Positions 27,822 to 29,431 of a stretch of 64,000 bases of DNA are shown piece by piece. This DNA is from a virus (Duplodnaviria > Caudoviricetes). The stretch spans positions 224,001 to 288,000 of the IMG/VR virus record IMGVR_UViG_3300049988_000124; one strand, written 5' to 3'. The stretch's first letter is position 1. Each line of letters begins with the position of its first letter. A program made the translations under genes and the position numbers. The notes under the pieces are model-generated. The model searched no databases, was not told the DNA's origin, and worked only from the letters and a program-made list of their open reading frames with translations.

Positions 27822-28157
27822 TTAACCAGTATAAAGCGAGGGGCTGTATATATCGAAGGAATCGCCGCGTTGCTTAAAGGCACGACCATTCCAAGTCACT
27901 TGTTTTTGCAAGAACTTTTGCTTGTCAAAGACCACGGTGTCCCCGACCTTCATGATCTGCATGTCGTGGACTTGGGAGAGGTCTGGGTCACTAGCAAGGT
28001 GAACCGGCATTCCAGTTTTGTCGGCAACGTTGATGTAGAATGAATTCTGTTGTCCGGCAGGCAGATCAGTAATGATCTGAATGATCGCGCCGGAGCCCGG
28101 AGGCTCACGGTGAGTGTGAGTAAGTCGTTGGACTTGCGTGATCTTTGCCGTGCGCAT
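27822..28157 (-). CDS. Hypothetical protein
   Basis: 111 aa with RBS gagga, directly upstream of the kinase. Confidence 0.65.
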   Translation of the reverse strand: MRTAKITQVQRLTHTHREPPGSGAIIQIITDLPAGQQNSFYINVADKTGMPVHLASDPDLSQVHDMQIMKVGDTVVFDKQKFLQKQVTWNGRAFKQRGDSFDIYSPSLYTG

Positions 28158-28401
28158 AACGTCCTCGATAAAAGCGATAGGGGTTCATATCAGAGTCGGA
28201 CTAAATAGTCCCTAGAGGGCTAAATGAAATTCTTCTTTGTTGCTGTCTCTTGGTATGAGCCTTCTAAACTCCAGTAGAAAGAATCGATTACATGCTCTTC
28301 AGGAACATACACCACGAGAGAGTGTGGATCATATCGCTATTAACATTGTTCTGGGTTGGAGTGTTCGCTAAATACTACGGTTACTAAGGGGAGGGGTCCA
28401 G

Positions 28402-29289
28402 GTGACTCAGGAGATTCTACGCTCAAAGCAAGACAAGTCCATTAACTTTGTAACACACGCCGATGATGGTGGTAAGATCGAAGCTCGCTTTGTTCAACGC
28501 GAAGAAGACACGATCATTGTCTACCTCTCCTCGATGACGGGGTGCAACCTTAGTTGTCGTTTCTGCCATCTGACCCAGATGCACGAGACCACGATGACGG
28601 CCGTTGACATCGATGGGTATCTTACCCAAGCCCGCGATGTTCTGACGCTCGCTGCCAAAGAAGGCAAGCTTGCCAATGTTCAGACGGTGCATTTCAACTT
28701 CATGGCGAGGGGAGATGCTCTATCGAACATCTACTTTGTCAACAAGACCGAGTTGTTGTTCTACCGGCTAGATAGTCTCTCGGCTGAACATGGTCTTATC
28801 TCCAAGTTCAAGATCTCCACGATCTTTCCCAACACACTCCTGGATAGCTTCACCCTTCCTATGTTGAAAGAATGGGTGGAGCAGGTCTACGATCTTCCCT
28901 ACGACGTTGAGTTCTATTACTCCCTTTATTCACTGGACGAGGCGTTCAGGAAGAGGTGGATTCCCAAAGGAATGGATCCCGAACGTGTCGGTTATCTCTT
29001 TGAGGGAACAGAGGGAAAGCTTCGTCTCCATCACGCCCTGATCGACAAAGAGAATTGCTCACTGGCTAACACCAATCCGATCAAGAGTTGGTTGGTCAGG
29101 TATGACATCAAATGTCGTTTAAACATCGTACGCTATAATCCTTTCAACAACGGATCAGGTGTAGAAGCCTCCGACGGGGACATTCGCACTTATTGTGGTA
29201 TCATGTCATTGTGCCCCAATATCCTGGGTACTTACGTAGTCAGTCGCGTCGGTCTCGACGTCAAAGCTAGTTGCGGAACATTCGTGTGA
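28402..29289 (+). CDS. RlmN/Cfr-like radical SAM enzyme
   Basis: KIEARF, SSMTGCNLSCRFCH (CxxxCxxC), HFNFMARGDAL, YSLYS, NIVRYNP and C-terminal DVKASCG (RlmN IDAACG equivalent). Confidence 0.85.
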   Translation: MTQEILRSKQDKSINFVTHADDGGKIEARFVQREEDTIIVYLSSMTGCNLSCRFCHLTQMHETTMTAVDIDGYLTQARDVLTLAAKEGKLANVQTVHFNFMARGDALSNIYFVNKTELLFYRLDSLSAEHGLISKFKISTIFPNTLLDSFTLPMLKEWVEQVYDLPYDVEFYYSLYSLDEAFRKRWIPKGMDPERVGYLFEGTEGKLRLHHALIDKENCSLANTNPIKSWLVRYDIKCRLNIVRYNPFNNGSGVEASDGDIRTYCGIMSLCPNILGTYVVSRVGLDVKASCGTFV

Positions 29290-29294
29290 ACACA

Positions 29295-29326
29295 CTAAGA
29301 GGGAGGGCATTAGCCCTCCCTCTTAG
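29295..29326 (+). terminator. Hairpin terminator
   Basis: ctaagagggagggc/gccctccctcttag 14-bp stem. Confidence 0.75.
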
Positions 29327-29431
29327 GTCTGTGTGGCTATCTGAATTATGCTCTTTTTTCAACCCAAGTTGGTTTTAATTAATCGTGTTATGGTGTGTAG
29401 TTAAGGCACTAAAATAAGGGAGTTTTTAAGC

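Follow-up and report, generated by a model that had tools for sequence, protein, structure and literature searches.

The DNA analysed here (the window) is a stretch of 64,000 nucleotides, bases 224001-288000 of the 307.8-kb virus record IMGVR_UViG_3300049988_000124, which belongs to a giant phage and is rated complete. At 28402-29289 on the plus strand it encodes a 295-residue protein related to the radical S-adenosylmethionine (SAM) methylases RlmN and Cfr. This enzyme is an undescribed variant of the class A radical SAM methylases: the position held in RlmN by one of the two catalytic cysteines is occupied by a tyrosine (Tyr41), both in this protein and across its family (the Tyr family). 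Judged by its place in a phylogenetic tree, the Tyr family is a third branch beside RlmN and Cfr and not a degenerate form of either. The explanation that best covers the whole is a turnover-competent methyl-cysteine enzyme in which Tyr41 would do the resolving and whose re-targeted, nucleobase-type substrate would most likely be tRNA. The probability of this reading was put at roughly 0.42.

Class A enzymes are defined by two conserved cysteines (PMC9692996). One of them, C355 in RlmN, is methylated, and the Cys-S-CH2 radical made from it is added to an adenine carbon (PMC9692996). The other, C118 in RlmN, points straight at C2 from the opposite side and acts as a general base that triggers fragmentation, possibly also taming the resulting thiyl radical (PMC9692996). 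A first-pass annotation had described the window's protein as an RlmN/Cfr-like enzyme lacking this resolving cysteine. Its reading of the motifs held throughout: the CxxxCxxC motif lies at C48/C52/C55, Cys291 in DVKASCG corresponds to C355 in the IDAACG of RlmN, the Glu of KIEAR (Glu27) aligns with RlmN E105, and MARGDA at residues 101-106 stands in place of MGMGEP at RlmN 176-181. The Tyr that it had placed seven residues upstream of the first cluster cysteine was confirmed by two alignments. A phmmer search against PDB chains aligned Tyr41, seven residues before C48, to E. coli RlmN C118 (IIVYLSSMTGC to TLCVSSQVGC; VKASCGT to IDAACGQ), and a profile of 140 family members gave the same register, with Tyr41 at RlmN C118 and Cfr C105. 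The gene and its catalytic positions, all on the plus strand, are as follows.

28402-29289 including the stop codon, plus strand: coding sequence of the Tyr-type RlmN/Cfr-like radical SAM protein (P0001), 295 residues; PHROG 27142, E 1e-68; AlphaFold2 model with a pLDDT (predicted local distance difference test) of 97.7
28480-28482, plus strand: Glu27 codon, equivalent to RlmN E105 and Cfr E91; invariant in the family
28522-28524, plus strand: Tyr41 codon (TAC), at the resolving-Cys position (RlmN C118, Cfr C105); from hidden Markov model and structure alignments
28543-28566, plus strand: cluster motif C48-x3-C52-x2-C55; from the translation and the family alignment
28702-28719, plus strand: MARGDA, residues 101-106, the altered form of RlmN MGMGEP (176-181; GGE-type SAM motif), with M101 equivalent to RlmN M176
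29272-29274, plus strand: Cys291 codon in DVKASCGTF, the methyl-carrier Cys (RlmN C355, Cfr C338); invariant

Tyr was found at this position (seven residues before the first cluster cysteine, position -7) in 314 of 317 distinct motif-bearing family sequences and Phe in none. The motif-bearing copies from cellular genomes also had Tyr without exception (78/78). Among 120 aligned relatives the only invariant cysteines were the three cluster ligands and C291. The ligands C48/C52/C55 were present in 119 of the 120 sequences, the remaining row being gapped, and were invariant in the 140-sequence alignment (A1); C291, aligned with C355/C338, was present in 120/120. No other conserved cysteine able to replace C118 was found among these 120 relatives, and the possibility raised in the annotation that another cysteine fills the C118 site has no counterpart in the family. 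The swap is far beyond chance in these alignments and not a one-off loss. Tyr-to-Phe is an easy substitution that is nevertheless wholly absent, which argues that the Tyr41 hydroxyl is needed for function. Among the three options in the annotation (another residue or chemistry, a stable cross-link, a non-RNA substrate), the first is the best supported, Tyr being invariant and never Phe. Because Tyr replaces one of two essential cysteines throughout the family, the finishing step must, on this conservation, be one that nobody has described, and this clade of about 590 clusters is a natural experiment on how a protein-substrate adduct can be resolved.

The AlphaFold2 model (pLDDT 97.7; predicted template modelling score, pTM, 0.94) has the RlmN-type fold, a partial barrel with a beta extension. 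In Foldseek comparisons the template modelling (TM) score was 0.72-0.75 to the RlmN-type structures 6fz6, 3rfa and 5hr7, 0.61 to Cfr and about 0.5 to other radical SAM enzymes. The 140-member family profile matched Cfr (E 2e-23), RlmN (E 2e-17) and 6fz6 (E 2e-14) over their whole catalytic cores. A maximum-likelihood tree was built from 38 family members, seven RlmN sequences, three Cfr sequences and two odd phage proteins. The Tyr clade formed one side of a branch of length 0.98 with 100/97 support, and its terminal branches were about 0.6 changes per site. RlmN and Cfr grouped together at 100/99, with the Tyr clade outside; this placement is the basis for regarding the family as a third branch. 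The fold and motifs named in the first-pass annotation therefore stand, and membership of RlmN or Cfr does not, the protein being part of a distinct sister clade that is mostly viral.

A Cfr structure paper lists the residues of the 5'-deoxyadenosine (5'-dA) pocket and those lying no more than 5 A from A2503, together with their RlmN equivalents (PMC12887959), and these were projected on the family. The 5'-dA pocket was kept (F54, C55, M101, V243, C291, G292). Also kept were RlmN E105 (E27) and M176 (M101), both invariant, together with S213, S233, N286, N307 and N312. Most of the mapped residues within 5 A of A2503 were changed in the Tyr family. New near-invariant residues stood at V107 (R29), E111 (R33), C118 (Y41), N172 (H97), V174 (N99), M178 (R103), H235 (Y176) and T346 (R282). 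On this map the SAM and methyl-Cys half of the enzyme is intact and the substrate-holding half is rebuilt.

The same division appeared in comparison with the two characterised enzymes. RlmN (E. coli YfgB; PDB 3RFA, 4PL1, 5HR7; TIGR00048) makes 2-methyladenosine (m2A) as 23S m2A2503 and tRNA m2A37. It is alike in fold, in the CxxxCxxC motif, in the SAM/5'-dA pocket and in the flexible C-terminal Cys loop (C355 at C291), as well as in E105 (E27) and M176 (M101). It differs in that identity is about 21%, the Tyr protein is without the RlmN_N domain and has Tyr in place of C118 and MARGD(E)A in place of MGMGEP, the arginines R206, R274 and R344 are gone from the Tyr family, and E111, N172 and V174 have become R, H and N. 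Cfr makes 8-methyladenosine (m8A) as 23S m8A2503 and gives resistance against phenicols, lincosamides, oxazolidinones, pleuromutilins and streptogramin A (PhLOPSA; PDB 9P0P; NF000424). It was the best profile match, full length at E 2e-23, and has the strand motif N-(L/I)-(I/V)-R-Y-N-P and the methyl-carrier Cys in common with the Tyr family. In contrast, its C105 is Tyr here, its N-terminal domain is absent from the Tyr protein, the family lies outside the Cfr clade, and the residues for C8 specificity are replaced (Y97 by R, W101 by Y/T, S103 by I, Q329 by R and F330 by V).

From these residues a likely course of catalysis can be proposed. SAM would first methylate Cys291. A second SAM would give the 5'-dA radical, which would convert methylated Cys291 to a Cys-S-CH2 radical, and this radical would add to one of the substrate's sp2 carbons. 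Tyr41, placed where C118 points at the attacked carbon, would take over the resolving step, either as a proton abstractor or base or as a hydrogen-atom or electron relay to the Cys291 thiyl radical, and the enzyme would turn over. The substrate would be a nucleobase-type ring, bound unlike A2503 or A37 and most likely in tRNA.

The case for tRNA comes from bacterial relatives. A scan of species genomes gave 80 cellular loci, and in 38 of them the radical SAM gene adjoined a gene whose product is a nucleotidyltransferase of the AbiEii family (Pfam E 1e-25; PADLOC E 5e-49; closest PDB entry 9hlo, 'AbiGII', E 1e-22). These loci were mostly from Planctomycetota and Myxococcota and included complete chromosomes. 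A gene for a ribonuclease-inhibitor-like leucine-rich repeat (LRR) protein was present in 36/80 loci, normally next after AbiEii, and a sulfotransferase-like gene in 22/80. The island was seen at L113, L144, L148, L119 and 34 further loci (e.g., L148:4789-8852), and in its usual layout the sulfotransferase-like, LRR and AbiEii genes are divergent from the radical SAM gene. Locus L119 is rearranged, with the radical SAM gene followed by AbiEii on one strand after a 4-nt gap. No AbiEi antitoxin gene was found in the flanks of the island, which vary between loci, and the island is therefore taken to be self-contained. The island radical SAM proteins formed one clade (FastTree support 1.0) inside the otherwise mostly viral family and had the same pocket residues as the phage proteins. 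The AbiEii proteins kept the catalytic Asp residues of nucleotidyltransferases and are probably active toxins. Characterised MenT/AbiEii toxins add nucleotides to tRNA acceptor stems (PMC7450476, PMC10435456) and are regulated through enzymatic modification (PMC11375011; bioRxiv 10.64898/2026.01.19.700257). A tRNA target is favoured because a bacterial subclade with the same pocket is coupled to a nucleotidyltransferase of this toxin family, which modifies tRNA 3' ends. No other consistent association of the family came to light, and this one suggests tRNA or the toxin itself as the place where the enzyme acts.

Several observations weigh against a tRNA-directed enzyme of this kind. The N-terminal helical domain of RlmN (RlmN_N, PF21016) is absent: there is no Pfam match to it, and the start of the protein corresponds to about residue 80 of RlmN. 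Three arginines that are invariant in the RlmN and Cfr samples, and that the Cfr-rRNA model places at the RNA, were lost from the family (R206 to P/A/V, R274 to mostly non-basic residues, R344 to V/I). The loss of these arginines and of the N-terminal domain speaks against RNA being gripped as in RlmN and allows for DNA, nucleotides or protein as substrate. The suggestion in the annotation of a non-RNA substrate, or of one bound differently, gains from the missing domain, the lost arginine equivalents and the re-lined base pocket. The part given to Tyr41 comes only from its position and conservation. On the phage side, the open reading frames (ORFs) of 80 IMG/VR loci were clustered, and no partner was shared by more than 18 of them; AbiEii, LRR and sulfotransferase genes were found neither in 80 viral loci nor in the window's phage genome. 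The island subclade has about 33-39% identity to the window's protein. The phage has nine tRNA genes (Leu, Ala, Ser, Ser, Lys, Thr, Cys, Asn, Tyr), and these tRNAs are not known as substrates of E. coli RlmN; as evidence on a tRNA target this set neither supports nor excludes one. A rough split of the target gave 35-40% to tRNA or other RNA, 20% to a nucleotide or small molecule, 15% to a toxin or anti-defence role and 25-30% to others.

The lost RNA contacts also bear on a second reading, in which the same methyl-Cys chemistry would act on a free nucleotide or small anionic metabolite (a dNTP or NTP, an NAD-related compound or a signalling nucleotide). The enzyme is compact, without the RNA-binding N-terminal domain or the RNA-contact arginines, and the new invariant pocket residues R29, R33, R103, H97, N99 and R282 would suit such a ligand. 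Some lineages have nucleotide or NAD users nearby (thymidylate genes at locus L007, described below; NAD-dependent ligase; PARP), and the bacterial cassette partners include a nucleotidyltransferase and a sulfotransferase-like protein. However, no neighbour was common across lineages, and fusions to nucleotide-binding domains were not seen. The N-terminal extensions of a few longer homologues contained no Pfam domain, and no relatives longer than 517 residues were found, which is weak evidence against fusions. The median isoelectric point (pI) of the family, 6.5, could be taken in favour of such a substrate; the pI of E. coli RlmN is itself 6.6, so charge does not discriminate. A free nucleotide or metabolite as substrate is an unlikely reading.

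The bacterial island admits a third reading, in which the cassette enzyme would be the enzymatic antidote of AbiEii, modifying the toxin or protecting its tRNA target, and the solitary phage copies would neutralise host toxins. The four-gene island is possibly a defence or toxin-antitoxin module not described before. It has bona fide AbiEii in common with the AbiE/MenAT systems and differs from them in being without AbiEi/MenA, in having the LRR, sulfotransferase-like and radical SAM proteins as partners, and in that the phage copies of the radical SAM gene stand alone. PADLOC recognised AbiEii only and had no model for the other three proteins. The absence of AbiEi from the flanks is in favour of this reading, and the order in L119, with the radical SAM gene directly upstream of AbiEii, is the usual antitoxin-toxin order. 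The conserved catalytic Asp residues, the known enzymatic control of MenT/AbiEii toxins and the nesting of the cassette clade in a mostly viral family are in accord with it. On the other side, the radical SAM protein could equally be a co-effector, with the LRR or sulfotransferase-like protein as antidote, and the radical SAM gene is divergently transcribed in most loci. Both the antidote role and the wider proposal, that Tyr-type enzymes are partners of AbiEii/MenT toxins in a radical SAM-AbiEii-LRR module and that the phage copies act in catalytic anti-defence, are rather improbable. If functional, the AbiEii link would bring a radical SAM enzyme into the fields of toxin-antitoxin systems and phage counter-defence.

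The Cys and Tyr pair facing the substrate site could alternatively form a Cys291/Tyr41 hydrogen-atom relay, as a Cys/Tyr pair does in spore photoproduct lyase, where the part played by the critical Cys has been noted (PMC9692996). The enzyme would then be no methylase and would act as a radical lyase or isomerase or in repair, perhaps on DNA, and several phage lineages do have recombination and repair neighbours (UvsX/gp32, SbcCD and DNA ligase). That synteny is lineage-specific only, the fold is of the RlmN type and not that of spore photoproduct lyase, and the whole RlmN methyl-carrier loop (D-x-x-A-S-C-G) is kept with the residues for the 5'-dA/Cys geometry. Such a relay is very unlikely.

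Activity of the ordinary RlmN or Cfr kind (either m2A or m8A made at 23S A2503, or at tRNA A37) would fit the RYNP motif common to Cfr and the Tyr family, the best NCBIfam match, which was RlmN, and the GenBank labels 'RlmN' on the gene in phages D6, Psa21 and Marchewka. The scores tell otherwise: the RlmN match (TIGR00048) reached 43 bits against a cut-off of 290, and the Cfr models about 22-24 bits against cut-offs of 468-550 (NF000424, 23.7 against 530; TIGR04432, 21.8 against 550). The family also lies outside the RlmN and Cfr clade, is without C118 and the N-terminal domain, and has changed most of the mapped residues near A2503, so that ordinary activity is scarcely to be expected. Databases should drop the label RlmN for this gene, and Cfr-like resistance activity is unsupported here. 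Mutation of the second cysteine traps both RlmN and Cfr on their RNA. The stable cross-link proposed in the annotation, a stoichiometric poison held covalently on host RNA or DNA for want of the resolving Cys, has the C118-to-Ala form of RlmN as its precedent, which remains cross-linked to its RNA substrate (PMC9692996), and is hardly credible for the Tyr family, since a site that had merely lost its function could be expected to admit Ala, Ser or Phe, none of which occurs there in 317 sequences (a pattern pointing to a catalytic hydroxyl), the catalytic pocket is deeply conserved and the same enzyme is retained in bacterial chromosomes.

The family as a whole corresponds to PHROG 27142 ('Fe-S-cluster redox domain-containing'), which the window's protein matched end to end (E 1.1e-68; residues 7-295 to profile positions 10-299 of 300). 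The Pfam Radical_SAM model (PF04055) scored 24.4 bits against a gathering threshold of 29.5, the motif and fold being present. An exhaustive search returned 592 clusters (50% identity; E <= 1e-3), 212 of them with E <= 1e-30, and the atlas clusters of the Tyr family were about 75% viral. Relatives at 33-43% identity occurred in cultured Pseudomonas phages (201phi2-1 gp434, Phabio, Psa21, D6, RVTF4, Viktualia), in the Caulobacter phages CcrColossus (gp283) and CcrPW, and in Brevundimonas giant phages. These culturable giant phages provide a set in which to find the target. A literature search returned no paper on the Tyr family or on the radical SAM-AbiEii cassette.

Recurrent neighbours in the 80 IMG/VR loci were lineage-specific and mixed, comprising UvsX/gp32/terminase, SbcCD, RtcB, DNA ligase, PARP, PheRS, Thg1, RlaP and Dam. 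By locus count, UvsX/gp32 was found in 17-18, SbcCD in 10, DNA ligase in 9 and PARP in 6. A link of the Tyr clade to NAD salvage was considered and found no clear support, the sole hints being PARP in 6 loci and the NAD-dependent ligase in 9. RtcB, AbiEii and a second radical SAM gene were all absent from the window's phage genome.

The gene itself was intact, opening with a GTG start that is supported by the family alignment, which begins at residue 4-8. The elements directly flanking it, both on the plus strand, are given below.

28386-28396, plus strand: Shine-Dalgarno-like sequence AAGGGGAGGGG, 5 nt 5' of the GTG start
29290-29334, plus strand: strong stem-loop directly after the stop codon, -33.4 kcal/mol, z = -6.0, without a U-tract

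The hairpin likely marks the transcript end or stabilises the transcript; a simple terminator scan made no call there because it has no U-tract. The upstream gene (27822-28157, minus strand) encodes a 111-residue protein for which a PHROG search gave no match, and no recurring promoter word was found in the spacer upstream of the radical SAM gene. The first-pass annotation had called the radical SAM gene divergent and provided with its own terminator. Divergence from the upstream neighbour was borne out; as to the terminator, the 3' hairpin is strong, is without a U-tract and was not called by the scan.

Two phage proteins outside the Tyr clade, each on a long branch, were compared further. 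Tunturiibacter phage Tunturi_5 gp170 (L009:3989-4987), on the RlmN/Cfr side of the tree, is RlmN-like and also without the N-terminal domain; unlike the Tyr family, it keeps both catalytic cysteines (Cys at -7) and the canonical GVGEP. Because gp170 has the domain loss alone, that loss and the Cys-to-Tyr swap are separable. Klebsiella phage 05F01 gene_104 (L008:3851-4780, 'radical SAM protein'), next to the Tyr clade, is the nearest outgroup; it is alike in the HLTQ motif and the SSCGMF tail and differs in having Val at -7 and Cys at -4, with 26% identity and a very long branch. The gene for it is flanked by nrdD and an 'ADP-ribosylation' gene, and one for a phosphoribosyltransferase is close by. 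An atlas structure match from Bacillota, a cluster of 491-residue proteins, combines a cytidine/tRNA-adenosine-type deaminase domain with an RlmN-like core (TM 0.83 to the window's protein). This fusion may hint at nucleotides or tRNA as substrates of N-truncated RlmN-like cores. Three phage records held full-length, host-type rlmN: Acinetobacter phage MD-2021a (L093), Klebsiella phage ST512-KPC3phi13.3 (L094) and Staphylococcus phage SA 1306 Kay (L095). In L093 and L094 the gene is beside the chromosomal neighbours ndk or rodZ, and these two look like bacterial DNA in a phage collection; L095 is a 386-kb unverified record.

Tyr-type genes were also noted in the following assemblies. In a contig of 526,847 bases (L007; NCBI GCA_034680565.1) the gene lies between ribosomal protein genes (L11, L1 ... 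L10), beside SecE and NusG, and the genes directly after it encode thymidine kinase, dCTP deaminase, thymidylate kinase, ThyA, DHFR and SHMT. BipA and a PAS histidine kinase are encoded on this contig too, which has the look of either a huge phage or a tiny symbiont within the assembly of a eukaryote. In the Agrobacterium rubi isolate genome GCA_013320875.1 (L005; 1.37-Mb contig) the gene adjoins an Omp85/POTRA gene and an IS605 TnpB gene within a long stretch of genes without Pfam matches, which looks like an integrated giant-phage-like region. In Acidiphilium sp. C61 a 639-residue ORF near the radical SAM copy (L172:692-2611) was 58% identical over 610 residues to an ORF of the window's phage (G000:116851-118653); it could be a host clue or a common cellular homologue. 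Outside the window, near the end of the phage genome, ARAGORN called a tmRNA-like gene with a 27-residue tag (G000:C1:302824-303274) beside a five-tRNA cluster.

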